Below, piece after piece: positions 17,770 through 57,383 of a stretch of 64,000 bases of DNA; positions within the stretch are counted from its first letter, which is position 1, and each line of letters starts with the position of its first letter. This DNA is from Polyangiales bacterium (GTDB lineage Bacteria > Myxococcota_A > Polyangia > Polyangiales > Houyiibacteriaceae), in NCBI GenBank assembly GCA_965227405.1, contig OZ245758.1, forward strand, positions 1,641,693 to 1,705,692, written 5' to 3'. The notes beneath the pieces were generated by a model. It worked only from the letters and a program-made list of their open reading frames with translations. It was not told the DNA's origin and searched no databases. Made by a program: the position numbers and the translations under genes.

Positions 17770-17780
17770 GGTCGGAGAGG

Positions 17781-17925
17781 GATGTGCCGCGATATATTTT
17801 TTATCTTGGAAGATTGAGAGATGGAAAGCTGGGAAGAGGAAACCGATTATTTTCTCGGGCCATGCGTTGAGCTTCCGTACTCCCGAGCTTCCAAGCTTCC
17901 GGATCCGCGAAGCGGAATGCTGCCC
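17781..17925 (-). repeat. MITE-like intergenic repeat, copy A
   Basis: reverse complement is ~85% identical over ~140 bp to 28661..28803; carries the core gcttccggatccgcgaagcggaatgc. Confidence 0.8.
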
Positions 17926-25636: not shown

Positions 25637-26206
25637 GTGCCGCGCGTTTGGAGTCATAACCACCACTACTACTCGCGAGTCCTGCTCGCCTGCCCTTCAC
25701 GATGCCGAGTCGCACTGGATGTTGGATGCGGCGAAGGTGACCTCAGTATCGAGCTGCTTCGAGTGGCGGACCACGTCATCGGACTCGACTCGGACCCGGT
25801 GGTGATCGAACGCGCACGCGAACGCTCGCGTGATGCAGAATGGCGGTGCGAGAGCTTCCTCGAGTCCGAACTACCGCGTGCCGACTTCATTACGTTCGTC
25901 GCATCTCTCCATCACATGGACATGCGCCCGACGCTCGATCGGGCACTCTCGCTCTTACAGCCTGGGGGAGTGCTCTGCGTCATCGGCATGGCGCGTTCGA
26001 CCGAACCGCGAGACTGGCTTGCCGATGTGGGGGGCTTTGTGGCGTCCCGAACACTGAAACTGTTTCGCCCAACCGCACGTTCGCAGATGCGCTTGAAGCA
26101 CCCACAGGTTTCGTACCGCGACGTTCGAACCCTCGCGCATTCGCTACCCGGCGCGCACTACGAACGGTTGTGGCTCTTTCGCTACCTCTTGGAGGTGAAC
26201 ACCTAA
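25637..26206 (+). CDS. class I SAM-dependent methyltransferase
   Basis: motif I VALDVGCGEGDL, motif II-like LLQPGGVL. Confidence 0.7.
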   Translation: MPRVWSHNHHYYSRVLLACPSRCRVALDVGCGEGDLSIELLRVADHVIGLDSDPVVIERARERSRDAEWRCESFLESELPRADFITFVASLHHMDMRPTLDRALSLLQPGGVLCVIGMARSTEPRDWLADVGGFVASRTLKLFRPTARSQMRLKHPQVSYRDVRTLAHSLPGAHYERLWLFRYLLEVNT

Positions 26207-28613: not shown

Positions 28614-28660
28614 CTTGGCACGCTCCGCTCGCAGAAACTTAGGCAGGGAAACCCGGGTTT

Positions 28661-28803
28661 GATGTGCATTCCGCTTCGCGGATCCGGAAGGATGGAAGCT
28701 CGGGAGTACGGAAGCTCAACGCATGGGCCGAGAAAAGAGTCTGTTTCTCTTCCCGGCTTACCCTCTTTCGATCTTCCCGGATAAAAATGAATCGCGGCAC
28801 ATC
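28661..28803 (+). repeat. MITE-like intergenic repeat, copy B
   Basis: bounded by the terminal inverted repeat GATGTGC..GCACATC; ~85% identical to the reverse complement of 17781..17925. Confidence 0.8.
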
Positions 28804-28824
28804 CAAGTCGCGAAGCGGACCTGG

Positions 28825-29700: not shown

Positions 29701-30179
29701 AGCGGCGGACGTTAGCAGCTTCGCGAACGGGCGCGTCGGGAGCCGGGAAACCCTTTAACTTTTTCGAAGACTCCAAGACCTGCAAAGACGCCAAGTCGTG
29801 GGTTGGGCGAGTATTTTTTCCCGGAAGAGGGGAAGGCGGGAAGACGGGAAGAGTTTTTTTTTTTTCTCTTGCCGGTCAGCGTCGTTCCTTTTGAGCGCTC
29901 GTTCGCTCCTAGCTCCGGGGCGTTTTGCGCTGCTCACCGCTTCGGATGTCTCGCTCGTGCTTCCTTCCTCCGAGCAACACGCATGAAATCAAAACGCAAA
30001 CCCATCGCCGGCCTCATGCAGCGTGTCCTCGCTCTTCGTGCGTTTTGACCTCGTCGCCGCAACGCGAAGTTGGGATACATGCGCGACGTGTGAGAAGTGA
30101 AAAACGCCTCGAAGATGGGTGCGCACGAGATCCGGTGGAACATCCGCAGGTGTCGGGAAAAAATCAGTCCTTCCCATCT

Positions 30180-30345
30180 TCCGGCTAAAAATACTGGCGC
30201 TACTCGACGACCGTCTTCGCAGGGTCTTGAAGTCTTGACTGGTTTGGTCGCTTGACCGACTTCGAGAAAATGATCGGTATCCCAGTCTTCCTGCTTCCGA
30301 GCTTTCGAACTTCCGAGCTTCCGGATCCGCGAAGCGGAATGCAGA
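30180..30345 (-). repeat. diverged copy of the intergenic repeat family, copy C
   Basis: contains gagcttccggatccgcgaagcggaatgc plus ttttctcgaag and ggtcttgaagtcttg motifs shared with the other copies. Confidence 0.6.
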
Positions 30346-30362
30346 CCAAGCCTTCCAGAACG

Positions 30363-30394
30363 AAAAAAGGGACACCCCGAAGGGCGTCCCTTTT
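30363..30394 (-). terminator. intrinsic terminator of the cysteine-protease gene
   Basis: minus-strand RNA GGGACGCCC-UUCG-GGGUGUCCC (9-bp stem, one G-U pair, UUCG loop) followed by UUUUUU, 20 nt after the stop codon. Confidence 0.7.
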
Positions 30395-30414
30395 CCAGTC
30401 TTCGCAGACCTGGA

Positions 30415-39479: not shown

Positions 39480-40211
39480 CTACACGCGTATTTCGGGAAT
39501 CGCTACGTTTGCAGGGCGAATCTGTAGGCGACGTCGAACATCGTCCAAATCGTCTTCCCACATGTCCTCAAAGCGAACGACCGGAAGAAACGCTGCTTCT
39601 GCACCTCGCTGAAACCCTTCCCACGCCGCAGCCACAACTTTGCGCGCATGTGGGGCCAAGCGAACGGTTCCGATCAACGTGAGCAAAGCAGAACTCGGCA
39701 TGCGCATTTGCGCGTAGCTAAACGCTTGGAGTGCGACCTCTCCCGCGACGTCGGTTTTGTATCCGGTGAGCACGTGCCAGATGTCGTGCGTCTGCCGAAC
39801 ACGCTGCGCGAGATACGCCGGAACCTCAGGCAGTCCGGGTGGTGCTTGAAAGAGATCGGGGTCCAGGTTCTCCGCATCAAGATAGCGAACATACGCACCA
39901 CCCAAGGTCGATGCCGGTAGTGCACGCAACGCATCGAAGTCGATGTGCTTGGAATCGATTGCGGGACGATCAACGAGCAGCTTGGAGCCTTCGGCGTCGC
40001 CTGCCATGCGTGCGAGGAAACGCTTCAAGTGCGGCGCGTTGAGAATGATGCCGAGTAGAAAAACTTGCTCGGTGTCGTTCGGATCTTGATGCAGCGCGCG
40101 CATTGCTCGGGTTGCGACCTGCACCTTCTCCCGCGGCGTCCCGTTGAGCGCAGTCCGAACAGCGTGGAGCTCGGGATTTTCGGTCGCTTCGAAATTCGCA
40201 TTCATTTCCAT
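39480..40211 (-). CDS. Coq4-family (ubiquinone biosynthesis protein COQ4-like) protein
   Basis: HDxxH-x11-E zinc-site motif THDIWHVLTGYKTDVAGE; 243 aa; 18 bp upstream of membrane paralog B. Confidence 0.6.
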   Translation of the reverse strand: MEMNANFEATENPELHAVRTALNGTPREKVQVATRAMRALHQDPNDTEQVFLLGIILNAPHLKRFLARMAGDAEGSKLLVDRPAIDSKHIDFDALRALPASTLGGAYVRYLDAENLDPDLFQAPPGLPEVPAYLAQRVRQTHDIWHVLTGYKTDVAGEVALQAFSYAQMRMPSSALLTLIGTVRLAPHARKVVAAAWEGFQRGAEAAFLPVVRFEDMWEDDLDDVRRRLQIRPANVAIPEIRV

Positions 40212-40219
40212 GGCTTCCT

Positions 40220-40274
40220 CTATTGTCAGAACTGATAATAACTCTGCTCAAGTTATTGTCAAGTCTGACAATAG
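40220..40274. promoter_or_regulatory. 55-bp imperfect palindrome, candidate TetR operator in the divergent promoter region
   Basis: perfect 11-bp inverted repeat CTATTGTCAGA (40220-40230) / TCTGACAATAG (40264-40274) with nested GATAATAAC / GTTATTGTC. Confidence 0.6.
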
Positions 40275-40289
40275 TGTTAGGTTCGACCC

Positions 40290-40910
40290 ATGGCGCGAGT
40301 CCGACGCACACCCGAGGAAGCGCGAGCTCTCATCCTGAAAGCGGCGCGCGAGATCCTCCTGCGCGAAGGACCTGCTCGTGTGCGCTTGAAGCAAGTCGCG
40401 AAACGCGCAGGCATCAGCCACGGGTTGATCACGCATTACTTCGGAACGATCGAAGGCTTGGTCGAAGAAACGTTCTCAACGTTCGTTCTCGAGATGCGAC
40501 GAGAGTGGATTCGTCGCTTCACGCAAGACGGACTCAACCTTCGAACGGGTGTCGAAGCGTTCTTCGAATCCCTCAGTCATCCGTTGTATGGGCGGTTGGT
40601 TGCGTGGGGGTTGCTAACGGGTCGTTTCGAAAAACCGGATGCGCCCTTGATGAACGATCAGGGCATTCGGCTGAGTGTCGATGCGGTGGAGGCACGTGTT
40701 CGCGAACGTGGTGGAGAGGTGAGCCGCGAGGATCTCGAGTACATGTTCCTGATCGTGATGACGAGCGCGGTGGGGTATCGGCTAGGACGCGTGCTGATGT
40801 GGAAGGGGCTCGGGCGCGAGCCGAGCGAAGAGCGGGATGCGGAGTTTCGGCGGCGGATCACGAAGATGATTCAGGCGTACTTGGATCTACCGGACGAGTT
40901 GGTGCGCTGA
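40290..40910 (+). CDS. TetR-family transcriptional regulator
   Basis: N-terminal TetR HTH ..ILKAAREILLREGPARVRLKQVAKRAGISHGLITHYF. Confidence 0.85.
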   Translation: MARVRRTPEEARALILKAAREILLREGPARVRLKQVAKRAGISHGLITHYFGTIEGLVEETFSTFVLEMRREWIRRFTQDGLNLRTGVEAFFESLSHPLYGRLVAWGLLTGRFEKPDAPLMNDQGIRLSVDAVEARVRERGGEVSREDLEYMFLIVMTSAVGYRLGRVLMWKGLGREPSEERDAEFRRRITKMIQAYLDLPDELVR

Positions 40911-40914
40911 GAAT

Positions 40915-41090
40915 CGAGGCGCTTCGCGGATCCGCAGGGAAGAATCGTCACAATTTGTTAGTGGGAGACGCGAGGCTAGGAGACCGGAGAGATAGATTTT
41001 CTCTGCGGACTCCGAGCCTCGCGTCTCCCACTAAATTAAGATCCCTCCCTCTGCGCCTCATAAAGATCTCCCTCTGCGTGTCCCTCAAAC
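40915..41090. repeat. intergenic repeat with a 20-bp perfect inverted repeat (hairpin element)
   Basis: TTAGTGGGAGACGCGAGGCT (from about 40961) pairs with AGCCTCGCGTCTCCCACTAA about 38 bp away; flanked by the partial core cgcttcgcggatccg. Confidence 0.7.
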
Positions 41091-41750
41091 TTTTGGCCAC
41101 GGTCTCCCCTCGAGTTGCTTCACCCGCTCGGCCGCTGCGTTCCACGCTTTGAAGGCGGCTTCTGCGGCGTCTCCTTCGAGCCGCATCGCCTGGTGTTCCA
41201 AGCGCGTTGCCTCTGCTGTCGCAGCTTGCCGCGCGGAGTCACGCTCTGTCGTTAGCGCCTTGAGGTAACGCGCGAAGCGGTCGGCGTCGGTGGGGAGAGG
41301 TCGGAACATCGCCGCATCGGGGTCGAAGTCTTCGCTCGTGAACCACACCCAATCACGAAGCAGGTTGTCGCACCACCGCTCCAGCTTGCCCTCGCCCCGC
41401 GACGAACCATCCGAGTCGTCAAACCAATGCACGGTGGGTTCCCGGTCTAACGCGTCGACGAGGTATCCCATCGAGTGCCGGTCTTCGACCAACACGAAAA
41501 CATGTGCATCGCCGTAGGGCTTTTCTGCCCCAAGTACGAACGCAGCCTCCAGATTGGGATGAACAAAGTACGACGAGTACTTCGCGACTGAACACGCCTG
41601 CGCCAACGCTCGCACGCCTTCGTATGCATCCGGAAACGGATCCTTCGGCTCCCCTTCGAGCTCGAAGGCAATCGCACCAGCAAGTACGCGCGCAGCCCAC
41701 GGCGTGTTGTAGGACACGCACGCGATGCTCTCGACGCTCAGCAAGCTCAT
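41085..41750 (-). CDS. hypothetical protein
   Basis: 221-aa ORF with balanced composition; no motif recognised. Confidence 0.45.
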   Translation of the reverse strand: MSLLSVESIACVSYNTPWAARVLAGAIAFELEGEPKDPFPDAYEGVRALAQACSVAKYSSYFVHPNLEAAFVLGAEKPYGDAHVFVLVEDRHSMGYLVDALDREPTVHWFDDSDGSSRGEGKLERWCDNLLRDWVWFTSEDFDPDAAMFRPLPTDADRFARYLKALTTERDSARQAATAEATRLEHQAMRLEGDAAEAAFKAWNAAAERVKQLEGRPWPKV

Positions 41751-41769
41751 GGTCCGAGCTTACTGGATG

Positions 41770-42144
41770 TCAGATGACGGGGAGTCCGCGCGCTTCGCAG
41801 TCGTGCTTCAGGATCACGCTCTTGGGTACGTCGCCCAATCCCAACTTGCTCGAAAGATGACGCGCGGCAGCACGCACCTCGAGTTTGGTGGGAACGTGGG
41901 TGGACGTCTCACGGCTACGACAGCGCGCTTCCGCGAGTTTCCATGCAGCAGGTGCGAGTCCGCCAGAGTCCTCGAGGAGACGGGCATACCCGCCATCTTC
42001 GGAAACCAACTTCAGCAGCCATTCGATGGGTCGCATCTCATACCTCCATACGACCGGTTGTGGCGCGACCTTTAGGGATTGGTGGGCGCGCTCATTACTA
42101 AGACGTGCAAAGCGCGCTTCAAAGTCAAAGAAACGGACGAACAC
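41770..42144 (-). CDS. hypothetical small protein (uncertain)
   Basis: 124-aa ORF directly upstream of and on the same strand as 41085..41750. Confidence 0.3.
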   Translation of the reverse strand: MFVRFFDFEARFARLSNERAHQSLKVAPQPVVWRYEMRPIEWLLKLVSEDGGYARLLEDSGGLAPAAWKLAEARCRSRETSTHVPTKLEVRAAARHLSSKLGLGDVPKSVILKHDCEARGLPVI

Positions 42145-42278
42145 TCGAGAAATACCCGGTTTTGTCGAGGGATCGCGAATGCCTCCTCGCCAACCAGGGA
42201 CGTTTCACGCACGTCACATCGGTATCGCCTCAGGTACTTACTGGCCCTGCGGCGCGATGGCGTTAAGGTGCTCGGTCC

Positions 42279-45200
42279 GTGCTTCCCCTCGAGAAGGTCC
42301 GCGAGAAGCTCTCCCCCGCCGATCGAGCGATGACGATCGAGGACGTGTCCGCTTCGTTGATGGACGAAGAGGTGGCGTACGCGCTCGCATACTTGGCCAA
42401 CTACGTCGAAGCGAAAACCCTCGGCGACTTGTTGTCGAGTGAACGCGCGCTGCATGTGTTTGGGCAGGCGCTTCGTCGGGATACGCAACAACGCGTGCTC
42501 CATGCACTCGACGAGTGGGCGCTAAGTGAAACACGTGTCCGCTGGCGTTGGCCGATCCAACCCTCGCCGATGGTGCCTGCTCCGCCCGAGAGTTTGAGTG
42601 CGCTGCGCAAGTGGGTGAAGAAGCACGACATCGAAGCGTTCCTCGGCGCGTTCGGGCAGAAGGTTCGTCCTTTTGCGCCTTCGGGCTACTTCATCGACAC
42701 CAACGAGTTGGTGACCGTCGAAGACATCTTGTGGCGACGCGGACCGGTCTCGACGCTCTCGCGCGCCGTCGCAGATCGTTATGCCATCGCTGCGCGCTCG
42801 TTTCTGCACTACCGAGCACGGCGACATGCGTTGGTCGTCAAACGTCGCGAGCTCTGGCAAAGCCGCCCGCATTCTCGTGCACTTCGCTTGTTTGCGAGTC
42901 GGATGCGCGAAGCCTTCGATCTCCTGGATCCGAGTTCGGACGACCCGGTCTTTCTGAGCGGCGATGAGCATCTCGTCCTGAACGACGCACCTCCCTCCAT
43001 CTCCGTGCGCATGCGCGGTGCACCCAGCACTACCGTTCGCATCGAGTTCATGGGTTTCGAAACGGCGCCGGTTCGTCTTACAACCGCGCGCGCGATGCCG
43101 ATCGAGCGCGCTCCAGAAGTTCGCGCCTTGGTCGAATGGACGCGCGACATCGTCCACGACATCCAGCATCCGCTCCACGAGACGCTCGAACGCGTGTTGT
43201 CCAAGCCCACGTGGATGTTCGTGGTGGACGCGTTGGCCAAAGGCCTCGAAGAATCCGAGGACAAGCCCTCCCGTGAGCAACGGTTGCTTTGGCGAATCGA
43301 AGAGACGAGTTCCGATCGCAAGTTTCGCGTGGATGCGATTGTTCAAAAGCGTCTCAAGTCTGGAAAGTGGAGCAAGGGTGCTCGCACAGCGGTCAACAAG
43401 ATTCCGGTCGAAGCACTGGGACCGGCTGACCACCTCATCTACGACGAGGCATCCAAAGCCGAAGATCGCTTTCCCGTGAACTACGACTCGGTATTGCTGG
43501 CGTTGGTGGGCCATCCGCGCGTGGAGCACGAAGGTCGGCGCATTTCGATCCACCAAAGTCAGCCCACGCTGGCGCTCACGCCAGCCGACGGTGGCGTGCA
43601 CGTGGAACTGCGCCTGCTCAACACCGTGTTTGATCCCGACGACATGGACGAGCGTGTCCACACGGCATGGGACGACGATCGACTGCACCTCACCGTCCTG
43701 GATCAACGCACGCTCGGGGTGATGCGAACGCTCGCTGGTTTTGGTGGTGTCCTTCCGCCCGAAAGCTACGACCGCATTCTTGAACTGCTGGCCCGGCTCC
43801 AACCGAACATCCAACTTCAGCTTCCGACGGCGTTGCGGGGCGATGCGAAAGCGGGGCCAAGCCCACTGGTTGTTCGCTTGGATCCGGATGACCGCGCGCT
43901 TGCGCTGAGCCTTCGCTTTCGACCCTTTGGTGCGAACGGTGGTTCGTGGCCGGCGGGTTCAGGACCGCGCATCGTGTACGGCACCAAGAAGGGCAAGCGC
44001 ATGCACGTGCAGCGCGATCTGCTGGACGAACAAAAGCAGGTACGCGCACTTCAAGACGCGTTGGGGCTCGATCAACTCGACACACGCATCACCGACTTGC
44101 CGCGTGCACTGGGGATCTTGGATCAGCTGGAGCAACGCGCGGCCCGCAAAGAGCTGATCACCGAGTGGCCGCGCGGTCGAAAGTGGAAGCTGCTTGGTAC
44201 GGCAACGAGCAGCGCGCTCAAAGTACAGGTCCAACGCGCGGGGGATTGGTTTGGCGTGGAAGGCTACGCCGAACTGGATGGCGTGAAGGTCCCTCTTTCG
44301 TCGTTGCTCAAGGCGGTTCGTCGAAACGAAGAGTGGGTGCAAGTCGCGCCCGGTCGGTTTGCCAAGATCGCCGACGGCCTGCGTGATCGACTGGGCAGTG
44401 CAGACGACGTGTTGGTCGAACACAAAGGCGAAATCGTCACCGGTGTTGCTGCGGTCTCCGAAGTCAAAGCGTTGGTCGACGAGGGCAACCTCGAAGCAGA
44501 CGACGGATGGCTCGACGTGTTGGATCGGATGGAACGCGCCAGCGAACTCGACCCCGAGTTGCCCGACGAACTCGATGCCGAACTTCGCGAGTACCAAACC
44601 GAAGGGTTTGTGTGGCTTGCGCGTTTGGCTGAGTGGGGCGCCGGCGCGTGTCTCGCCGACGAGATGGGCTTGGGCAAAACGGTGCAAGCCTTAGCGATGT
44701 TGTTGCGTCGAAGCGAGCTTGGACCCGCGCTTGTGGTCGCGCCGACGTCCGTCGGTGCAACGTGGCGTTCGGAAGCCAAGCGTTTCGCGCCCGAACTCAA
44801 CATCCGCAACTACCGCGGGCCGAAGCGAGCATCGCAACTCACCAAGCTCGGAAAACGCGATGTTGTCGTGACGAGTTACGACATTCTCGCGCGCGATGGC
44901 GAGGTGCTGGCTAACCAGGACTTCGCGACGTTCATTCTTGATGAAGCGCAAGCGATCAAAAACGCACGCACCAAGCGAGCGAAAGCAGCACGCGGAATCC
45001 AAGCACAGTGGCGATTGGCGCTGACCGGCACGCCACTGGAAAACCACCTTGGCGAGCTATGGAGTTTGTTCCGCGTGGTGTCCCCAGGATTGCTGGGCAC
45101 GTGGCCACACTTTCGCGAGCGCTTTGCGAGTCCGATCGAGCGCGATGGCATCGAAGAGCGGCAGCAAGCGCTCGCCCAGAAACTTCATCCCTTCTTGCTG

Positions 45201-45953
45201 CGACGAACAAAATCCGCGGTTGCACAAGAGCTTCCGCCTCGAACCGAGGTACTGCGCCCGGTCGAGTTTTCTGAGCACGAACTGGCGATCTACAACGCGG
45301 CTCGACAGGAAGCACTGGACGGTTTGGTCGCGTCCAAGCTCGAGAAGAAGCGCTTTGAGGTTCTTGCTGCGCTAACGCGTTTGCGTTTGTTGGCTTGTCA
45401 TCCGCGTTTGGTCGATCCGACGTCGACGCTCAAGTCGTCCAAGGTGAGCAGCCTGTTGGAGTTGATCGACGATCTTCGTCGCGAAGGTCACCGCACGTTG
45501 GTGTTCAGCCAGTTTGTGTCGTTGCTGGATATTGTGCGCGAGGAACTCGACGCAAAGGGAATCGACCCACTCTACTTGGTGGGTTCAACACCGGCAGAGC
45601 AACGCGAGCGTTTGGTGGACCAGTGGCAAGAGGGTGAAGACCCCGTGTTCCTCATCTCGCTCAAGGCCGGAGGAACGGGACTGACGCTGACCGGTGCGGA
45701 TACCGTGATTCATCTGGATCCCTGGTGGAACCCAGCGGTGGAAGACCAAGCGTCAGACCGTGCGCACCGCATCGGGCAAGAGAAGCCGGTCACGGTGGTG
45801 CGACTGGTCACGCAGGGAACGATCGAAGAGTCTGTGCTGCGTTTGCACGATGAGAAGCGTGCGTTGGTGGATGGCGTCCTGGAGGGAAGCGGTGCTGCAG
45901 GGTCACTGAGTGCGGAGGAGCTGGTGGCGCTAATCCGGGGGGAAAGCGACTAG
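42279..45953 (+). CDS. SNF2-family helicase with long N-terminal SNF2-associated region
   Basis: SNF2_N motifs ..LREYQTEGFVWL.., DEMGLGKTVQALA, ILDEAQAIKN; helicase-C motifs LISLKAGGTGLTLTGADTVIHLDPWWNPAVEDQASDRAHRIGQ. Confidence 0.85.
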   Translation: MLPLEKVREKLSPADRAMTIEDVSASLMDEEVAYALAYLANYVEAKTLGDLLSSERALHVFGQALRRDTQQRVLHALDEWALSETRVRWRWPIQPSPMVPAPPESLSALRKWVKKHDIEAFLGAFGQKVRPFAPSGYFIDTNELVTVEDILWRRGPVSTLSRAVADRYAIAARSFLHYRARRHALVVKRRELWQSRPHSRALRLFASRMREAFDLLDPSSDDPVFLSGDEHLVLNDAPPSISVRMRGAPSTTVRIEFMGFETAPVRLTTARAMPIERAPEVRALVEWTRDIVHDIQHPLHETLERVLSKPTWMFVVDALAKGLEESEDKPSREQRLLWRIEETSSDRKFRVDAIVQKRLKSGKWSKGARTAVNKIPVEALGPADHLIYDEASKAEDRFPVNYDSVLLALVGHPRVEHEGRRISIHQSQPTLALTPADGGVHVELRLLNTVFDPDDMDERVHTAWDDDRLHLTVLDQRTLGVMRTLAGFGGVLPPESYDRILELLARLQPNIQLQLPTALRGDAKAGPSPLVVRLDPDDRALALSLRFRPFGANGGSWPAGSGPRIVYGTKKGKRMHVQRDLLDEQKQVRALQDALGLDQLDTRITDLPRALGILDQLEQRAARKELITEWPRGRKWKLLGTATSSALKVQVQRAGDWFGVEGYAELDGVKVPLSSLLKAVRRNEEWVQVAPGRFAKIADGLRDRLGSADDVLVEHKGEIVTGVAAVSEVKALVDEGNLEADDGWLDVLDRMERASELDPELPDELDAELREYQTEGFVWLARLAEWGAGACLADEMGLGKTVQALAMLLRRSELGPALVVAPTSVGATWRSEAKRFAPELNIRNYRGPKRASQLTKLGKRDVVVTSYDILARDGEVLANQDFATFILDEAQAIKNARTKRAKAARGIQAQWRLALTGTPLENHLGELWSLFRVVSPGLLGTWPHFRERFASPIERDGIEERQQALAQKLHPFLLRRTKSAVAQELPPRTEVLRPVEFSEHELAIYNAARQEALDGLVASKLEKKRFEVLAALTRLRLLACHPRLVDPTSTLKSSKVSSLLELIDDLRREGHRTLVFSQFVSLLDIVREELDAKGIDPLYLVGSTPAEQRERLVDQWQEGEDPVFLISLKAGGTGLTLTGADTVIHLDPWWNPAVEDQASDRAHRIGQEKPVTVVRLVTQGTIEESVLRLHDEKRALVDGVLEGSGAAGSLSAEELVALIRGESD

Positions 45954-45959
45954 GTTCCT

Positions 45960-46190
45960 GGGTTGTGGCTCCGGTCTATTCACTAATTTAGTGGAAGATT
46001 CGAAGACGAAAGACGAAAGAGCGCGAGCTCGAGCGCGAGGGTGACCGATAAATTTTTCGGGTATCGTCGCTCCGAGGCACCCACAAAAAGACAGCTCCCC
46101 TTGAGTCTTGCGCCTTCGATCTTCCACTAAGAATATCGACCAAAAGGCGCGCCACCAAAGTGACGCGCCCCAAGTTCGAGACAAGCTCGC
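45960..46190. repeat. intergenic repeat element with TTAGTGGAAG terminal inverted repeats
   Basis: CTAATTTAGTGGAAGAT (~45978) pairs with ATCTTCCACTAAG (~46121); shares ttcgaagacgaaagacgaaagagcg-type motifs with 54535..54610 and 29760..29790. Confidence 0.6.
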
Positions 46191-46196
46191 AAGATC

Positions 46197-46964
46197 TTAC
46201 AAGCCGAACTCGGCCAGACACTCCCTCAGCTGCGGCGTGTCTTCCCAACCGCAACCGTCTTCCCCACCACCGCACACACCGTAGCGCTGGTAGCAGACAA
46301 ACTCCGGTCGCACTTCGCACGTAGTCGCAAGATCATCGGCTGCGCAGATCTCTCCCGAGCAACCCGTTCGACGACACTCGCCGGGATCCGGTTCGGGATC
46401 GGGCTCGGGATCCGCAAGACACGCTTCGAGTTCCGCGGTCTCCATCCAACCGCACTCGCCATCATCCTGACGTCCGCAGATTCCGTGGTCGGCGTAGCAC
46501 GCATCTCCGGGAAGCACTTCACACGTGGTCGCGATGTCTTCGTCCGCGCAGATCTGACCGGAGCAACCGGTTCGACGACACTCGCCCGGTTCCGGTGAAG
46601 GATCGTCCAAGCACGCACTCAACTCTGGCGTCTCGGTCCACCCGCACAGTCCATCAGCCTGACGCTCGCAGGCTCCGTGCGTGTCGTAACAAGCATACTC
46701 TGGTCGTGCTTCGCACGTACTCGTGAGTGGCTCGTCGTTACAGAGTTCACCCGAACAGCCGGTACGAATACAGCCGCCACAATCGGGGTCAGCATCGAGA
46801 CAGAACGAGTCGCACTCGCCGTCTCCGTACCAGCCAAACTCTTCGCAGTAATCGACTTCGGTCTCGCCGATGTCGCGTACCTCTTGTTTCGTAAACCCAG
46901 CGTTTTCCGACGTACAGCCGGCAACGGCGAGGCACGCGAAAGCCCAAGATGCGATTCGATTCAT
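46197..46964 (-). CDS. Cys-rich lipoprotein with three tandem ~65-aa repeats
   Basis: lipobox MNRIASWAFACLAVAGCTSE; three repeats of C(I/R)RTGCSG(E/Q)(L/I)C..ATTCE..P..CY..G.C.RQ.DG.CGW.ET.EL..CL. Confidence 0.65.
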   Translation of the reverse strand: MNRIASWAFACLAVAGCTSENAGFTKQEVRDIGETEVDYCEEFGWYGDGECDSFCLDADPDCGGCIRTGCSGELCNDEPLTSTCEARPEYACYDTHGACERQADGLCGWTETPELSACLDDPSPEPGECRRTGCSGQICADEDIATTCEVLPGDACYADHGICGRQDDGECGWMETAELEACLADPEPDPEPDPGECRRTGCSGEICAADDLATTCEVRPEFVCYQRYGVCGGGEDGCGWEDTPQLRECLAEFGL

Positions 46965-47055
46965 GATGTTTCCTTTCTGAAGCAAGACAGACAACGGCCT
47001 GCCAACGCCGGAGTCGGCGCGGTGGTGCAGGCAGAAATGAGGGAGCTAGCGAGCG

Positions 47056-47709
47056 CTAGAGGGGACAGCCTCCGGCACACGCCTCGGCGACCAGAGTGAT
47101 GAACACGGCGTCTTCACTGCCGCGCACTTCCAAGAGATCTTCGACTTCCCCGTCACGGCCATCGAACGTGACGATCACATCAAGACCACCATCACCGGCG
47201 CTCATCCCGGTTACCGACAAGCCTTGGTCGCCGCGTACAAGCGCAGGTGCCATCAGCATCTCCGCGCACACCGGCTGAGCAGGAAAACGGATTGCGGTTT
47301 CTTCACCCGGCTCGCCTTCGATGCGCATGAACGTTTCGGGCACCGTGGGTCGGCACACCCCCGAAAGTGCGCCGACAACCACGCTGAAGTCGAACACGTC
47401 GGAACGAAGTCGCTCGTTGATCGCTTGCAAGCGAACCGTCAACGCGCCCGGCAACTCAAAACGAAAGCTGCCATCCTCGTTCGTCGGAATACGAACCGGT
47501 GCATCCGTGCTGCCGAAGATGGTGGTTTGGATGTCCACACCACCCGGATCAACCGCGCCTGCGCTGCCCTGCACGATGAGCAAACCCGCACCGCCTTCGA
47601 TCAACTCCACGCGTTCCGGATCCAGGTCGGGCTGCAGCGGAGGGTTGCCAGTTTCGGTGCCCACACAGGCCAGCGAGACCACGAAAAGCATGCAAAGTAA
47701 GGGTTTCAT
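47056..47709 (-). CDS. lipoprotein, hypothetical
   Basis: lipobox MKPLLCMLFVVSLACVG; 4-bp overlap with the upstream gene. Confidence 0.55.
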   Translation of the reverse strand: MKPLLCMLFVVSLACVGTETGNPPLQPDLDPERVELIEGGAGLLIVQGSAGAVDPGGVDIQTTIFGSTDAPVRIPTNEDGSFRFELPGALTVRLQAINERLRSDVFDFSVVVGALSGVCRPTVPETFMRIEGEPGEETAIRFPAQPVCAEMLMAPALVRGDQGLSVTGMSAGDGGLDVIVTFDGRDGEVEDLLEVRGSEDAVFITLVAEACAGGCPL

Positions 47710-48539
47710 GACGTCTCATCGCCTTTAGAGAGAGGGAAGAGCTGAAAGTTAATCTGGATGACCTGGGTCGGATTTTCAGAGTCTTCTTCGAGAGCAAGAA
47801 GCGACCCGCGCAGGTCGCGAAGCTGGCTTTTGATCTCTTGGAGACGACCCGGATCCACGCAAAGCGTCAAAGATGAGATGTCGCGTTCTGCCGCGGGCAC
47901 GAGATCGATCGCTTCGGCAGCACGGCGCATCATTACGCGGTGGTACTCGCCGATGTGCACCCACTTGGTTTGCGGCCCCGTCGACACGATCGAATCGCTG
48001 GGTCGAATCTGGCCATCGACTTCTTTCAGCATGCCGAGTTCTTCGAGAATGCGAAGCGCACGAGCGGCATCGCTCTTGGAGATCGCCGGAACCATCTGAC
48101 CCGCGATCCAAGCTGCGTCGGCGCGAAAGTCTTTGCGTCGCGCCAACTCACGCACCGCGGGAATGAACCACTCGCTGTGGTATGCGGCATGTGCGAGATC
48201 GAGTTTTTGAGCTTTGCGAAAGCTGCGGTGACTCGACAGGTCGCGATAGCGTTGTGCGCGCTCTGACGAAGTCTTGGCTTGGTTGAACGCCACCAGGTGC
48301 TCAAAGAAACGCAGCCCTTCCCCGTCCAAGCCGCATGCCTTTCCAAAGCGCTGCGCCATTGCCGGGGTGAGGTTGCGGTCGCCATCGATGACCAGCTTCA
48401 AGTAGTTGGGCGACTTGAGTCCGGCGCGACGAGCGAACGCGCGATACGAAAACCGACCGCCCGCTTTCTTGAGGTCGTAATACGCGCGAAGAAACTCGCG
48501 GTAGTCGAGGAACTCAAAGACTTCGAGCGGCGCGCCCAT
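47706..48539 (-). CDS. TIGR02147-like (Fibrobacter/myxobacterial paralogous family) putative DNA-binding protein
   Basis: N-terminus ..FLDYREFLRAYYDLKKAGGRFSYRAFARRAGLKSPNYLKLVIDGDRNLT resembles that family as I recall it. Confidence 0.6.
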   Translation of the reverse strand: MGAPLEVFEFLDYREFLRAYYDLKKAGGRFSYRAFARRAGLKSPNYLKLVIDGDRNLTPAMAQRFGKACGLDGEGLRFFEHLVAFNQAKTSSERAQRYRDLSSHRSFRKAQKLDLAHAAYHSEWFIPAVRELARRKDFRADAAWIAGQMVPAISKSDAARALRILEELGMLKEVDGQIRPSDSIVSTGPQTKWVHIGEYHRVMMRRAAEAIDLVPAAERDISSLTLCVDPGRLQEIKSQLRDLRGSLLALEEDSENPTQVIQINFQLFPLSKGDETS

Positions 48540-48756
48540 GACTACTCAATACGTCGCCTCGCGTGTTCGCGCACCCTGCGGAACAGAGATATCGTATACG
48601 CTTAGTATACAAAAATTGATGAGTTTCACAAATAATCCAATAATATCAAGCAGCCTAGTTCGTCTTGGCACATGCAGCGGACTCAATCTGTATACAAGCT
48701 CAATCGACTGCTCGCTGTTCGTGCGCCTCGAACACGGCAATGGCTAGACTGCGCGC
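48540..48756. promoter_or_regulatory. AT-rich divergent promoter region with three GTATAC palindromes
   Basis: tcgtatacgcttagtatacaaaaattgatgag...aatctgtatacaagc; local GC is far below the window average. Confidence 0.5.
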
Positions 48757-52601: not shown

Positions 52602-53228
52602 ATGCAAACTGCCAAAACTACTAAGAAAACCAAGAAGGTCCTGATTCTCGAAGCGGCCGAAGCGTTGCTCCACGAAGAGGGCTACGAGGCGTTGAGTGCG
52701 CGAGCTGTCGCGGAACGTGCGGGCGTGAACAAAGCGTTGGTGTTCTATCACTGGGGCAGCACGACTGCGCTCTTTGAAGCCGTGTTGGTGCGCTACTACG
52801 AGCGGCACAAAGCTGCGTTGGAAGACGCGTACGCTCAGCCAGGAACGACGCGTGAACGGATGCATCGTGTCGTGGATGACTTTCTGGATTTCATGGAGAG
52901 CGAACGCGCGTATGCGCGGATCGTGCAGCAGCAGGTGTCGAGTGGAGGCGAGCACGTTCCCTTGGTGCGCGCGCATCTGAGCTCGGTGTTGGATATTACG
53001 ACGCGCATGTTGGAAGGCGTGACACCCGCAAAGGGGCCGCTGAGCGCGCGGCATTTTCATCTCTCGTTGTCCGCGTTGGTGATCAACTACTTCACGTACT
53101 CGCCCATGCTCGTGCCGGAGGGTTCGACGTACGATCCCTTTACCGAGGAAGCGTTGGCGGAGCGTCGCTCACATGTGCATTGGGTCGTCGATACGTGGAT
53201 GGACGCCTTGGAGAAGCAAGGGACTTAG
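52602..53228 (+). CDS. TetR-family transcriptional regulator
   Basis: HTH ..ILEAAEALLHEEGYEALSARAVAERAGVNKALVFYHW. Confidence 0.85.
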   Translation: MQTAKTTKKTKKVLILEAAEALLHEEGYEALSARAVAERAGVNKALVFYHWGSTTALFEAVLVRYYERHKAALEDAYAQPGTTRERMHRVVDDFLDFMESERAYARIVQQQVSSGGEHVPLVRAHLSSVLDITTRMLEGVTPAKGPLSARHFHLSLSALVINYFTYSPMLVPEGSTYDPFTEEALAERRSHVHWVVDTWMDALEKQGT

Positions 53229-53289
53229 GCTGGGCGGGACATTGGGCGCGAAGGTATTGGGGGTGGGGTTCCCTCAGTTTCGTTGACAC

Positions 53290-54162
53290 CTATGCGACGA
53301 ACGCCGCGTGGTTTACTTCGAACTGCTCTGGGGAGACGTACCCAAGCGTCGAGTGACGTCGTTCCCGGTTGTAAAAGACTTCGATGTACTCGAAGAGCGC
53401 ACTCCGGACATCCTGCTCGTCTCGCCAAGTGCGACGCGAGATGAGTTCTTGTTTGAGCGTGCTGAAGAACGACTCCGCGACCGCGTTGTCCCAGCAGTTG
53501 CCTTTGCGACTCATGCTCAGACGTACTCCCGCTTGAGTGGCCGCAAGTTCGAATGCATAGCTTGTGTACTGCCTGCCTCGATCGGAGTGGTGAACGAGCT
53601 CTTCCTCTGGCGCGCGAGAAATCAGCGCCGCATTGAAAGCGCTGAGCACCAGCTCGGTTGTGAGGTCGCTACGCAATGACCAGCCAACGACTTTGCGTGA
53701 GAACAGATCCAGGATCACTGCGAGGTACGACCAGCCTTTTGCGGTCTGAATGTACGTGATGTCGCTGACCCATTTTTCGTTCGGTCGTGACGCCGCAAAG
53801 TCGCGGTCGAGTATGTTTGCTACAACAGGTCGCGTCTCATCGCGTTCTGTGGTGTTTCGAAAACTCTTTCGCTTCCGCGCTTGGATCCCCAGTGTTTTCA
53901 TGGCGTTTTCAACGGTGCGTTTGGAGACTCGTATCCCATGCGTCTCGCGCAACTCCGCCAACACGCGTGGACTGCCGTACGTTTGGTAGCTCGCGAGGAA
54001 GATGAGTTGAACAAGTTCTTCGACGTGTCGTCGACGCGTTTCAGTCCGACTCGGTCCTCGATCTCTCCACGCGTAGTACCCGGCACGCGTGACCTGAAGG
54101 ACGCGACAGAGACGAGCGATTGAGTGGTTTGCCTTCTCTGCGTGAATGAAAGCAAATCTCAT
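53290..54162 (-). CDS. IS3-family transposase OrfB (integrase core, DDE)
   Basis: HSDRGRQYTS motif and rve-type catalytic core. Confidence 0.85.
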   Translation of the reverse strand: MRFAFIHAEKANHSIARLCRVLQVTRAGYYAWRDRGPSRTETRRRHVEELVQLIFLASYQTYGSPRVLAELRETHGIRVSKRTVENAMKTLGIQARKRKSFRNTTERDETRPVVANILDRDFAASRPNEKWVSDITYIQTAKGWSYLAVILDLFSRKVVGWSLRSDLTTELVLSAFNAALISRAPEEELVHHSDRGRQYTSYAFELAATQAGVRLSMSRKGNCWDNAVAESFFSTLKQELISRRTWRDEQDVRSALFEYIEVFYNRERRHSTLGYVSPEQFEVNHAAFVA

Positions 54163-54494
54163 TCGCTTTCGCGCGCAAAGAAGGCCGCGGCTTTTTTTAG
54201 GATGACCTTGTCCTCTTCCGCGGAGTCGAGTTTCCGTTGCAGACGCTTCACCTCACGCCGCAACCGTTGCAACTCCTCCTCGGGCGTCTCCTCTTTCCTC
54301 GTCGCCGTCCGCTTCTTTTTCGGTTTCTTCCGAGCCATCTCATCACGGTACCAGCTGTAGAGCGTGCCTCGATTCACGCCGAGGCGTTCCGCCAGAACAG
54401 CAAACGTGTCGTCGCTTCGCAGGACGAGTTTCACCGCTTCAGCGCGAAACTCAGCCGAGTAGCGACTATTCCTTCTCGATCTTCTTGAGCCCAT
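54159..54494 (-). CDS. IS3-family transposase OrfA (HTH)
   Basis: Myb/HTH N-terminus RRNSRYSAEFRAEAVKLV and leucine zipper; slippery AAAAAAG at minus strand 54199..54192. Confidence 0.85.
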   Translation of the reverse strand: MGSRRSRRNSRYSAEFRAEAVKLVLRSDDTFAVLAERLGVNRGTLYSWYRDEMARKKPKKKRTATRKEETPEEELQRLRREVKRLQRKLDSAEEDKVILKKAAAFFARESE

Positions 54495-54645
54495 GACACC
54501 TCCAAGGCGGTGTCAACGAAAGCGAGGGAGGCCCAGGGGTCTATTCCATTTAATTTTTTCGAAGATTTGAAGAGCGAAGACTCAAGATTTTTCTCGGTTT
54601 CTACCGCCAGCGCGTCGGCGAATACACTCTCCGCAGGAGGTCTCC

Positions 54646-54894
54646 ATGAAGGGTTTTGCTCTCGGATTGTCACTGTCGATCGCGTTTGTTTTAGGGTGCG
54701 TTTCAAGTCCGCTCGTCACACGCGATGCCCGCGCTCAAGAGGACGGCGGGGAAGTCGTGCCAGCACACGTCCCACGTTGGCAGCACTTCTACTACCTCGA
54801 CCAACCGCCGCGGTACGACCTGGACCGTTTGAACGACCTGGGCGGACGCGGCTGGCAGATGGTCGGACCGCGTGATGAGTACGATCGAGTCTGA
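54646..54894 (+). CDS. small lipoprotein, hypothetical
   Basis: MKGFALGLSLSIAFVLGCVSSP lipobox; 82 aa. Confidence 0.45.
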   Translation: MKGFALGLSLSIAFVLGCVSSPLVTRDARAQEDGGEVVPAHVPRWQHFYYLDQPPRYDLDRLNDLGGRGWQMVGPRDEYDRV

Positions 54895-55000
54895 AGCGTC
54901 AACTGTGATCAGATCTGCGAAGCCACAGCACCCTAGAAAAGGAAATCGGTCTCCTCTTTGCACTCTTGGAATCTTCTGATCTTCCAAAAAATAAAATAGG

Positions 55001-55031
55001 TATCCCCGTATCCCCGTATGCCCGTATCCCG
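55001..55031. repeat. octanucleotide tandem repeat (TATCCCCG)x4
   Basis: tatccccgtatccccgtatgcccgtatcccg in a convergent intergenic region next to an A/T-rich run. Confidence 0.85.
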
Positions 55032-55055
55032 ACCGCAACCAACCAAACCCACCGA

Positions 55056-56153
55056 TCACTCAGGCGTCGGCAGTTCCTCCAACGAGCTGATGTACGCCCA
55101 CAATGCTTCCAGTTCCACGTCGGTCATTCGCTCTGCGTACGGCTTCATCAGCGTCATCGGCTCACGCACATCGGAGCCATCCGGTCGCTTCATCTCGCGC
55201 ATCGAACGCACAAAGTCTTCGTAGCTCCACTCGTTCAACGCAGTCAGGTTTGCCGCTGGGAGCCAATCCGGATCGCCACCCAAGATTGGACCTCCCTGAA
55301 GCTGCTCTCGATGACAACCCACGCACGGTCCCGCGAGGTGCTCGCCGAATTCCAACGTCGGCGCGGCTTCTGGAGGCGTCGACGGATACGTTTGCTCGTG
55401 GTCGATCTCATCCGCAGCTAACGGGATCTCCCCAAACGCGAGCAACACGGTTCCGAGCGGACCCATCTGCACCGCTGGCGTGTCATCTGAATCAACGGGA
55501 TCCAACGAACGCACGTACGCGATGATGTCGGAGAGTTCGCGGTCGCTCATGCGCTGATGATCTTGAGCAGGCATGACGGAGGGACGTCCGTCAGACATGA
55601 CTCCGTGTCGAACGATGCGATCCCAATCCGCGACGGAGTAGCTTTCATCGAGCCCGCCGTTGCCTGAAGTCAGGTTGGGTCCGAGGAACGTACCGAGCGC
55701 AGGGTCGTCCACCATGACGCCACCACCGAAGTTCGCGCCGTGACATTCGGTGCAGCCATATCGTGCTTCGACGAGGTGCTGTCCGCGTTCGATGGCGCGT
55801 TCCAAAGCGAGTGCGTCAAGATCGACCCCTTCGAGAGGATCGACTTCAACAACATCGGCGGCATCGGCATCGACATCCGCATCGGGATCGGCATCCGCAT
55901 CGGCATCCGCATCGTCGTCGGTTTCGGATTCAGAGGAAGCAAGTTGCGCAGACCGCTCCTCGCGCAGCTGATCAAGCTCCGCCTCGCTCAACGGAAACGG
56001 AACCGGAACATCCACCACGCTCACGTCGAACGAGCGGTTGACCAACGAATCCGCTTTGACCGAAGCCCATGCGTAAAGGACGCCAACTCCGACGAGCAGG
56101 ACTCCCAGAAAGACAGCAAGCCCCTTAAAGAACTTCTTCACCCCACCTCCCAA
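55056..56153 (-). CDS. membrane-anchored diheme c-type cytochrome
   Basis: two CxxCH motifs (CTECH, CVGCH); N-terminal TM; (DA)n low-complexity linker. Confidence 0.75.
   Translation of the reverse strand: MGGGVKKFFKGLAVFLGVLLVGVGVLYAWASVKADSLVNRSFDVSVVDVPVPFPLSEAELDQLREERSAQLASSESETDDDADADADADPDADVDADAADVVEVDPLEGVDLDALALERAIERGQHLVEARYGCTECHGANFGGGVMVDDPALGTFLGPNLTSGNGGLDESYSVADWDRIVRHGVMSDGRPSVMPAQDHQRMSDRELSDIIAYVRSLDPVDSDDTPAVQMGPLGTVLLAFGEIPLAADEIDHEQTYPSTPPEAAPTLEFGEHLAGPCVGCHREQLQGGPILGGDPDWLPAANLTALNEWSYEDFVRSMREMKRPDGSDVREPMTLMKPYAERMTDVELEALWAYISSLEELPTPE
55852..55917. repeat. hexanucleotide tandem repeat (GCATCG/GCATCC)n coding (DA)n
   Basis: catcggcggcatcggcatcgacatccgcatcgggatcggcatccgcatcggcatccgcatcg. 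Confidence 0.85.
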
Positions 56154-56278
56154 GCCGGATTGTATACGGTCATCACAACGAACTGGAGAACGACATCGAC
56201 TCGGTCGTCACGTCATTTGTCACAGCAGGATACGGTTCGATTCGAATCGAGATCTCACTCGACTCGAGACGCATCCAC

Positions 56279-56563
56279 GTGCGGCGTTGGGGTCACAAAC
56301 TCGACGAAGAAGCTGAGTACACGTTGCCGAAAGCAAAAGTCGCGAGGCTCCGGCGACTCGCCTCACGAGTCCAACAAGACGAACAAGAATCCGTCGTCGG
56401 GTCGTTTCACGAAACCGGTCGTGAAACCTTGGACATCTCCATCAACGGTCAGTGGATACGACTCGAGCATCCCACCGACCGCCTGACAACGCCCGCAGCA
56501 AGTGCAGTGACCACCTACTGTCACCAACTCGCCGACGAGTACTGCCCGCGAAAAGCAACATGA
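56279..56563 (+). CDS. hypothetical small protein (uncertain)
   Basis: 94-aa ORF with protein-like composition in a 540-bp divergent intergenic region. Confidence 0.25.
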   Translation: MRRWGHKLDEEAEYTLPKAKVARLRRLASRVQQDEQESVVGSFHETGRETLDISINGQWIRLEHPTDRLTTPAASAVTTYCHQLADEYCPRKAT

Positions 56564-56690
56564 GGTTTGGGTCACTCGGCGGCTGAGGCTCCGTCGCCTC
56601 AGGCTGGCCGCACTCAACCCGAATTCGCCTTGATTTCCGGGACTTGGATCGCGCAATCGGGGCGGCACGATGCTTGTAATAGGGAGCTGC

Positions 56691-57383
56691 ATGAACTTGC
56701 TCTCTCGTTGGTTGATGCTCGCTTCAATCCTCGCATTGGTCGGTTGCGGTGACGACGATGGTCCCGCCGATCCAGTCGACGGAGGCAACGGTGACGCTCC
56801 CGTTTTCATGCCTCCCGACACGGGGCTCATGCTTCGCGATTCGGGCAACGTCGACAGCTCGGTCTCCGAGTGCATGCGACCTCGGCTCGACCCACCGCCG
56901 GCTGAAAGTCTTCCACTGTGTAGCGCCGAAACGCGTGACTGCGTACAGCGTTGTCCCGAAGACGAAGAGGACTGCGCCGATGAGTGCTGGGCTGCGGATG
57001 AAACTCCGGCGGACCCGGACATCGGAGGATGCGGCGAGTGCGTGATCTTCGACCTGCTCGCGTGCTTCGACGCAAACGGATGTCAGCAACAAGTCGCCGA
57101 GATCTTCTGTTGCGGTGAACGCGAGTGCCCACCGGGCAGCGCCGAAGACTGCTTTGATGTGATGTGCCAACCGGAGCTGCAAACGTTGTTCTCGTGTGGC
57201 GTGTCGATGGCACCCACCTGTTTGGATGAACTCAACGGCACGGGCGCTTGCTACGACGACACACCGCTGACTGATGCCGGTCCGATGGACGACGCAGGTC
57301 CCATGGATGACGCGGGTCCCGGCGACGCGGGCGACATGGATGCAGGCGTTGCGGACGCCGGTACCGACGCAGGAGAAGTTTGA
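56691..57383 (+). CDS. Cys-rich secreted lipoprotein, hypothetical
   Basis: lipobox MNLLSRWLMLASILALVGCGDD; about 20 Cys; C-terminal DAGPMDDAGPMDDAGP repeat; ATGA overlap with the next gene. Confidence 0.6.
   Translation: MNLLSRWLMLASILALVGCGDDDGPADPVDGGNGDAPVFMPPDTGLMLRDSGNVDSSVSECMRPRLDPPPAESLPLCSAETRDCVQRCPEDEEDCADECWAADETPADPDIGGCGECVIFDLLACFDANGCQQQVAEIFCCGERECPPGSAEDCFDVMCQPELQTLFSCGVSMAPTCLDELNGTGACYDDTPLTDAGPMDDAGPMDDAGPGDAGDMDAGVADAGTDAGEV

Follow-up and report, generated by a model that had tools for sequence, protein, structure and literature searches.

The DNA considered here is a 64-kb stretch (64,000 nt, hereafter the window) of contig OZ245758.1 from the Polyangiales bacterium assembly GCA_965227405.1, and its subject is a pair of intergenic hairpins, E1 and E2, which a first-pass annotation had described as elements with TTAGTGGRAG terminal inverted repeats (TIRs). 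The gene content of the window, including Ser/Thr kinases, FHA-sigma54 activators, RCC1 and DUF4423, fits Myxococcota, and the homologs of its M20 peptidase belong to Myxococcota, Myxococcales or Polyangiales metagenome-assembled genomes. Both hairpins sit just past gene 3′ ends, as the annotation had observed. E1 occupies the convergent gap between a TetR gene and a minus-strand open reading frame (ORF222), 47 nt past the stop of TetR (40910) and 50 nt past that of ORF222 (41085). E2 lies in the convergent gap between an SNF2 gene and a minus-strand Cys-rich ORF, 34 nt past the SNF2 stop (45953) and 66 nt past the stop of the Cys-rich ORF (46197). Inside E1 and E2 there are only spurious overlapping ORFs.

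E1 is built on a perfect 20-bp inverted repeat (TTAGTGGGAGACGCGAGGCT / AGCCTCGCGTCTCCCACTAA, 40958-40977 and 41015-41034), as had been reported, although it starts 3 nt further left (40958) and has a spacer of 37 nt, not 38. What had been called the loop is itself paired, giving arms of 35 nt with three mismatches and a real loop of 7 nt. Among the gapless local inverted repeats of the window, E1 has the top score. Structure prediction, a check that the first-pass annotation had proposed, gave z scores of −7.4 to −12.6: ΔG was −63.5 kcal/mol for the RNA in a 121-nt context (z −7.4), −60.4 kcal/mol for the minus-strand RNA of the 77-mer (z −12.6), and −38.9 kcal/mol for the same 77-mer folded as DNA (z −12.2). 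None of the shuffled sequences folded as well as the real hairpins (0/200). The 3′ flank of E1 is AAUUAAGAUCC on the plus strand and CAAAUUGUGACG on the minus strand, and GTT is present at its left end only, without an AAC partner. The outer arms of a longer, tentative imperfect palindrome around E1 are weakly complementary and are not strongly paired in the minimum free energy fold. To the left, the partial copy of a repeat core that had been reported beside E1 is an exact 15-mer (CGCTTCGCGGATCCG) of the core of a second kind of element, F, and to the right stand two tandem degenerate copies of a leader module (table 1), a stretch that is missing from the 95%-identical related contig L014.

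E2 has a perfect 12-bp pair at its ends (TTAGTGGAAGAT, 45988-45999, and ATCTTCCACTAA, 46119-46130) enclosing 119 nt. The inverted arms reported for E2 are thus real, but the interior is shorter than the ∼130 nt given, and the CTAAT and G flanks that had been included are not complementary. Past the ends, some 30 bp of imperfect pairing follow on the inner side, and a weaker outward pairing of GGTCTATTC with GAATATCGACC extends the element to 45974-46141. Its folds have z scores of −4.2 to −5.6, and its 3′ flank is GAAUAUCGACC. The interior sequence gaagacgaaagacgaaagagcg is found exactly at 46003-46024 only; its reported recurrences elsewhere in the window are not verbatim copies but homologous arms, at 54551-54587 and 29751-29790.

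TTAGTGGRAG has four exact matches in the window, all at the arms of E1 and E2, against 0.03 expected, and the two elements have a 15-mer in common (TCTYCCACTAAATTA, shuffle z 4.0). The presence of the motif at two loci only might suggest chance palindromes that coincidentally share a 10-mer, a reading to which we give practically no credence, as it is refuted by the motif count, by the shuffle folds, and by significant, shuffle-tested homology to other repeats.

These other repeats carry the same arm module, which is found at eight loci of the window (E1, E2, three F-type elements and three solo arms; table 1). The repeats form a family that is locally dense and modular. F1 and F2 stand in opposite orientations and are 88% identical over 141 nt including parts outside the stems (z 64), and their folds are weak (z −1 to −2). 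The F core 15-mer CGCTTCGCGGATCCG occurs exactly four times in the window (40920, 17901, 28672, and 30323), and an F-family 25-mer (GCATTCCGCTTCGCGGATCCGGAAG), which contains the mini-hairpin motif GCGAAGC, is exact in three copies. The structure is a mosaic one: E1 adjoins an F core, and both F3 and S29751 are composite. In S29751, arm a (29745-29790) is similar to S54546 and F3 and arm b (29807-29853) to the end of F2, and the arms are followed by a run of 12 T and a truncated partner. The T12 homopolymer (29854-29865, between GGGAAGAG and CTCTTGCC) stands out in a genome of 61% GC and is the apex of a family hairpin that is truncated. S54546, which is homologous to both arms of E2, starts directly where an IS3-family element ends, upstream of a lipoprotein-like ORF at a distance of ∼46 nt.

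Table 1. Hairpins, arms and associated modules of the repeat family (positions in the window unless a related contig is named)
Feature	Position	Strand	Bases from leader end to GGRAG	Description and basis
F1	17780..17925	+	ATCTT	Full-length F-type element, apparently in a convergent gap
F2	28660..28806	-	ATCCG	Convergent gap; 88% identical to F1 over 141 nt
S29751	29745..29875	+	TTC	Composite; alignments, HMM
F3	30200..30352	+		Mosaic of reversed S-type arm, F pyrimidine arm and core; F-family copy at 30293-30352
F-core fragment	40920..40934	+		CGCTTCGCGGATCCG, adjoining E1; exact 15-mer
E1, extended imperfect palindrome	40931..41056 (∼126 nt)	.		Outer arms CGCAGGGAAGAATCG / GATCCCTCCCTCTGCG, weakly complementary; sequence inspection
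E1, core hairpin	40958..41034	.	AGT	77 nt, ends TTAGTGGGAGA / TCTCCCACTAA; inverted-repeat search and folds
Leader module	41037..41083	.		Two tandem degenerate copies, AAGATCCCTCCCTCTGCG / AAGATCTCCCTCTGCG, right of E1; sequence inspection
E2 with outer leader pairing	45974..46141 (168 nt)	.		Left leader common to solo arm S54546
E2, hairpin	45988..46130 (143 nt)	.	AGT	12-bp perfect ends, folds
7-nt tandem repeat	46003..46020	+		AAGACGA x2.6 within the left arm of E2; TRF
S54546	54541..54600	+	TTC	Solo arm, homologous to both E2 arms; alignments, HMM
S54971	54945..55001	-		Solo arm; arm HMM only, E 0.03
L002 hairpin	6584..6691 of L002		TTC / TTG	108 nt, directly past the SNF2 gene
L015 hairpin	722..812 of L015		AACC	Preceded by an S-type arm
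HMM, hidden Markov model; TRF, Tandem Repeats Finder.

An alignment of 11 arms from the window and the related contig L002 (MAFFT) gives a common layout comprising a GC-rich flank, an AT-rich leader (TAATTT or TTTTTT), three to five variable bases, GGRAG, and then three or four purine-rich units per arm that repeat every 7-8 nt. Two such arms in inverted order make the long hairpins (E1, E2, F1, F2, and those of L002 and L015), and single arms and mosaics occur besides these. At the position of TTAGTGGRAG the sister elements have TTTTCGAAG, TTATCCGGGAAG, TTATCTTGGAAG, TTTTCGGAGG or TTAACCGGAAG. The motif is the variable junction of one two-copy subtype and not a family signature, and the proposal that it is the defining TIR of the family does not hold. 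Identity between the two arms of one element is 80-91%, compared with about 40-77% between elements, where the background among purine-rich low-complexity arms is already about 55-65%.

Pairwise local alignments of the elements, judged against dinucleotide shuffles, connect E2 with S54546 (z 6.3, 31/38 identical, both arms), S54546 with S29751 (z 6.0), and S29751 in turn with F2 (z 8.7) and F3 (z 7.1). [quoted passage not shown] The family is previously undescribed. As a bacterial repeat it is of an ordinary kind and does not amount to a new type of system. The overall interpretation given earlier survives insofar as it saw a repeated hairpin family where chance palindromes might have been suspected, but not as a MITE defined by its TIRs.

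Several observations weigh against this view of E1 and E2. Direct alignment of E2 with the F elements is not significant (z 1.5-1.9), and the kinship of the E and F types runs via a chain of purine-rich arms; the network leans partly on these low-complexity arms, with their background identity of about 55-65%. The arm HMM built from the 11-arm alignment recovers essentially its own training set, with one extra arm at 55001-54971 (E 0.03), and has no match in the L001 and L008-L013 loci. Most elements end in an apex resembling TTTTCTCGG, a motif picked by eye and post hoc; 6 of its 10 matches fall at element apexes, but it has no window-wide enrichment (10 observed versus 10.0 expected). Two E-type copies are known, both in the window, the 9.07-Mb source genome lying outside the scanned collections. 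No partner transposase, REP-associated tyrosine transposase (RAYT) or integrase is present in the window besides the unrelated IS3 element, and no target-site duplication stands beside E1, E2, F1 or F2. Relatives with 78% identity diverge too far to allow a clean empty-site comparison, and the nonhomologous windows in them also hold genes. A role of the hairpins at the RNA level, finally, would be supposed purely by analogy with REP and Correia elements.

Searches for further copies were made in collections that leave out the source genome, with a two-arm pattern of the TTAGTGGRAGA type at gap ranges of 30-90 and 61-121, since no single pattern spans both E1 and E2. Among 185,579 reference genomes (GTDB representatives), the 30-90 range gave five unrelated chance-level hairpins in other phyla (Eubacteriales, Pedobacter, Andreprevotia, Phormidium, and Bacillota). 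In JGI metagenomes the 61-121 range gave 14 hairpins on contigs of 33-50% GC without arm similarity, and the F-core 25-mer gave no match. IMG/VR viral contigs contained no match to the pattern at either gap range or to an F-core 20-mer, the F core is missing from 13 of the loci compared (∼160 kb), and neither E1 nor E2 had a blastn match in plasmids or phages. An Rfam 15 search of the window at gathering thresholds returned nothing, and an E-value search with E1 returned only miRNA-precursor models scoring 25-36 bits against thresholds of 60-120. The window has no tRNA or tmRNA by search, terminator and promoter consensus scans made no call at either E1 or E2, and no relevant MITE or REP family of myxobacteria was found in the literature. 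The first-pass annotation had held that arms unique to the two loci and without flanking duplication would be chance palindromes or ordinary terminators. In the data searched, the arms are unique and no duplication is present, yet the consequence does not follow, because the arms are homologous to other repeats of the window and its relatives and lack a terminator U-tract.

The window was compared with a set of related contigs and loci (L001, L002, and L008-L015). L001 matches the window at ∼78% identity over 30.4-61.4 kb and has 8 bp in place of E1 and ORF222 (40903-41771) and 13 bp in place of E2 and three genes (45944-48741). L002, at the same divergence, carries a different hairpin directly past its SNF2 gene (ends TTTAATTTTCGGAGG...CTCCCAAAATTAAA, fold z −12.5). 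A further hairpin, in L015 (TTTAACCGGAAG...CTTCCGGTTAAA, fold z −9.9), is preceded by an S-type arm that is 75% identical to 29775-29856 of the window. In L015, a 1.1-kb metagenome contig, an unrelated gene contains 78 nt (501-578) with 97% identity to an inner part of ORF222; the contig is probably chimeric and was for that reason used for its hairpin only. E1 and E2 are missing from L001, L002, L008, and L010 at the compared sites, and at the more distant SNF2 ortholog loci (L008-L010, 59-60% amino acid identity) the gaps are short and ordinary and hold no element of the family. None of the compared relatives yielded a clean empty site.

The closest comparison is with L014, a low-coverage contig that has 95.3% identity to window positions 41082-45746 and shares ORF222 (97% amino acid identity). 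Homology to the window ends 17 nt past the ORF222 stop, and at the E1 site L014 has a different arm of the family, GATCATTTTTCGAAGACTCAAAGTCGTGCCAAGAG (GATCATTTTTCGAAGACTCAAAG...), where the contig ends. Because L014 keeps ORF222 but carries another arm at this site, the E1 hairpin is, on this comparison, much younger than the flanking genes or has been replaced. The assembly break would fit a multicopy repeat, although the other end of the contig breaks inside SNF2. Comparison of these loci shows that a given element is not conserved at the orthologous site, even where the relative is 95% identical.

Some features of the neighborhood of E1 and E2 may be recorded here. Upstream of the TetR gene, the divergent gap toward a Coq4-like gene contains a 24-nt imperfect palindrome (CTATTGTCAGAACTGATAATAACT / AGTTATTGTCAAGTCTGACAATAG, 40220-40274) that overlaps a sigma70-like promoter match (11/12) and looks like a putative TetR operator. 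The Coq4 homolog itself (ubiquinone biosynthesis; PF05019, E 6e-43; 39480-40211) is next to the TetR gene in L001 as well. The Cys-rich ORF beyond E2 (46197-46994, minus strand, no Pfam match) contains three tandem 147-nt coding repeats (46255-46797, 63-72% identity). The C-terminal codons of SNF2 differ between the window, L001, and L002.

All four complete hairpins of the window (E1, E2, F1, and F2) lie between convergent genes, their gaps lack a canonical terminator, and every convergent gap longer than 100 nt in the window holds such an element or another motif. Taken with the extreme stability of the hairpins on both strands, and with the 'I-shaped' hairpin terminators without U-tract that have been proposed for high-GC bacteria, this raises the possibility that the elements are nonmobile bidirectional terminators or 3′-end stabilizers that evolved locally and resemble one another through shared design, not copying. 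We regard this as possible though unlikely. The 3′ flanks are A-rich or mixed instead of U-rich, and the order of T-tract, stem, and A-tract is the reverse of that in a bidirectional terminator. Solo arms and the L002 and L015 hairpins stand upstream of genes, in co-directional or divergent gaps. The identity of F1 and F2 outside their stems argues for copying over convergence, and a different arm occupies the orthologous site in L014. The genome also has canonical terminators of a different appearance, such as the bidirectional intrinsic terminator AAAAAAGGGAC...GTCCCTTTTCC at 30364-30397, whose conservation in L001 (92-129) indicates that the lineage uses ordinary terminators. A canonical terminator was rejected for E1 and E2 given the absent U-tract, the reversed flank polarity, and the lack of a call by the terminator scan at either site. 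Elsewhere in the window, the motif GTRAATTCTGGGGAC is found 3-10 nt past the stops of two unrelated plus-strand genes, in stretches (10731-10768 and 63564-63601) that are 71% identical over 38 nt.

Classical MITEs would be derivatives of an insertion sequence (IS) with a DDE transposase, for instance IS630/Tc1-like, having TTAGTGGRAGA as the TIR and TA as the duplicated target. E1 (77 nt, or ∼126 nt when extended) and E2 (143-168 nt) are of suitable size and have no coding capacity, their ends are identical at all four arms, and TTA...TAA is compatible with a TA duplication around GTGG...CCAC. E1 is replaced in L014, and both elements are missing from four other relatives. The end hexamer TAGTGG also starts the Correia TIR of Neisseria, TATAGTGGATTAA (PMC5039591). 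Even so, we find this origin quite unlikely. The inverted ends (20 bp in E1, 12 bp in E2) are trivial given that each element is a hairpin throughout instead of unique DNA enclosed by TIRs, and the sister elements differ at their terminal bases, which a sequence-specific transposase would not tolerate. The flanking direct repeats that the first-pass annotation had suggested looking for amount to the TA of TTA...TAA, which is self-complementary and indistinguishable from the inverted repeat; neither the core nor the extended ends of E1, E2, F1, and F2 have a direct repeat beside them. Copies with the same TIR number two in the 64 kb, with none in related DNA among the scanned collections, from which the source genome is absent, and the matches in the 185,579 genomes and in metagenomes are unrelated and at chance level. 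The only IS in the window, of the IS3 family, has TIRs that do not match.

That IS3-family element (53264-54535) is complete and directly adjoins S54546. Its orfA (54159-54494, HTH_Tnp_1) and orfB (53290-54162, rve) are both on the minus strand, and its 27-nt TIRs (TGGGGTTCCC... / ...GGGAGGCCCA) are flanked by GGG(G).

Against the syntenic L001, the window has three lineage-specific islands (40903-41771, 45944-48741, and 53207-56743), each of which starts within a few bases of the stop of a conserved gene, namely TetR, SNF2, and a second TetR. Genes for a DUF547 protein (28825-29700) and a methyltransferase (25637-26206) are each inverted relative to the gene order of L011 and L012. F2 and F3, as inverted copies, lie on either side of the DUF547 segment, an arrangement that suggests a repeat-mediated inversion.

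E1 lies at the edge of an 869-bp insertion with one ORF and E2 at that of a 2.8-kb insertion with three, as seen against L001, each hairpin being 50-66 nt past the 3′ end of an inserted minus-strand ORF. It is conceivable that the hairpins mark or mediate attC-like cassette capture at the 3′ ends of conserved genes, or rearrangements, and the other hairpin at the same SNF2 3′ site in L002 and the inverted DUF547 segment would accord with this; we nevertheless consider it extremely unlikely. No integrase or recombinase is nearby, attC R″/R′ core sites at both ends and extrahelical bases are lacking, and E1 is nearly perfect. The right-hand borders of the islands have no element, nonconserved intergenic DNA is scored as 'island' anyway, which makes the association partly automatic, and the sharing of ORF222 with L014 where the hairpin differs indicates that gene and hairpin do not travel together. 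A related proposal, which we judge very unlikely, is that the hairpins are structure-recognized recombination hotspots at conserved-gene 3′ ends, where the lineage gains, swaps, or inverts genes, as a functional analog of attC or of REP-targeted integration but with no known integrase. It would explain the position of E1 and E2 at insertion borders, the L002 hairpin, and the inverted F copies around an inverted gene, but it meets the same objections from ORF222, the island borders, and the lack of a recombinase nearby.

If E1 and E2 do belong to a dispersed repeat family, its copies may spread or be replaced by DNA-level copying, through mobilization in trans or through gene conversion between dispersed copies. 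Paired arms would stay complementary through intramolecular templated repair or template switching (quasi-palindrome correction, an established mutational mechanism) and could diversify via slippage of short repeats. Slippage-type repeats detected by TRF are the AAGACGA repeat of E2 and an 8-nt tandem repeat, GTATCCCC x3.9, at 55000-55030, beside the solo arm S54971. The elements would persist mainly at gene 3′ ends, where insertions are tolerated, and on transcription would form very stable hairpins in 3′ untranslated regions that might act as an exonuclease barrier, an RNase III substrate or a leaky bidirectional roadblock. Intergenic short-repeat expansion seems to be common in this clade, and L012, from a related metagenome-assembled genome, has a long compound microsatellite, (GGTTT)n / (GGTTC)n, past the M20 peptidase gene (11360-11450).

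Where they have been studied, REP, BIME, Correia, and ERIC repeats shape mRNA stability, promoter supply, and genome rearrangement. For Myxococcota, our searches of the literature and Rfam turned up no equivalent family. If the local density of eight loci per 64 kb held genome-wide, extrapolation to a 9-Mb genome would give a number of loci on the order of a thousand, and the family would then be a leading cause of breaks in assemblies, like the one at which L014 ends, and would drive intergenic turnover between close relatives as well as repeat-mediated inversions. It would be of practical use as an annotation class and as a strain-typing marker for the lineage, and by itself opens no new mechanistic question.

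Among known systems, Correia elements have a fixed 26-bp TIR (TATAGTGGATTAA...), a TA duplication, and an integration host factor (IHF) site, and are confined to Neisseria. The elements described here differ in their variable terminal bases, the absence of a demonstrable duplication, their purine-rich arms of 7-8-nt repeats, and their host, a myxobacterium of 61% GC. Correia elements (CREE/NEMIS) are likewise intergenic and hairpin forming, and their transcripts are cut by RNase III and can supply promoters (PMC10969869). Further likenesses are a size of roughly 100-150 bp, noncoding sequence, long transcribed hairpins, subtypes, occasional nesting, and the hexamer TAGTGG of TATAGTGGATTAA at the E ends (PMC5039591), which is too short to indicate homology. 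We therefore rejected membership in this family, only TAGTGG being shared and the host belonging to the Myxococcota.

Integron attC sites are imperfect hairpins of 57-141 nt with RYYYAAC/GTTRRRY core sites and extrahelical bases, arranged in cassette arrays and served by the integrase IntI. E1 and E2 resemble them in combining variable sequence with constant structure and in their position at the 3′ end of inserted ORFs; they were rejected as attC sites since they have no core-site pair, E1 is nearly perfect, and no integrase other than the IS3 rve is present. The stable stem-loops just past stops in convergent gaps recall Rho-independent or 'I-shaped' terminators, from which they differ in having no U-tract, stems of 27-41 bp that greatly exceed the usual length, AT-rich bases placed within the stem base, and reversed polarity. 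A retron msd hairpin was rejected because the neighboring ORFs have no RVT domain.

Modularity is shared with several other small repeats. Minisatellite-containing MITEs, such as BrickBuilt of Porphyromonas, and the pneumococcal BOX, RUP, and SPRITE are small repeats of modular build, found in clusters and inserted within each other. Some of these families hold internal short tandem repeats or terminator-like hairpins (PMC10969869, PMC4596501), but their sequences and hosts are unrelated to those described here, and SPRITE has a true Rho-independent terminator shape that the present elements do not.

As in the REP, BIME, and REPIN repeats of Enterobacteria and Pseudomonas, the elements are extragenic palindromes at gene 3′ ends and between convergent genes, with mosaic modules as in BIMEs and inverted doublets forming long hairpins as in REPINs. 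REP units are GC-rich imperfect palindromes of 20-40 nt with conserved GTAG/CTAC, are mobilized by RAYT (Y1 HUH), and have been proposed to act as mRNA 3′-end stabilizers and as substrates for rearrangement. Single arms of the present family are instead purine rich and not self-complementary, and lack GTAG. REP/REPIN membership was rejected on the absence of GTAG and the nonpalindromic single arms, and no Y1_Tnp match was found among the roughly 45 window proteins scanned for a RAYT. We describe the elements as working like REP/MITE-type repeats and file them under no named family.

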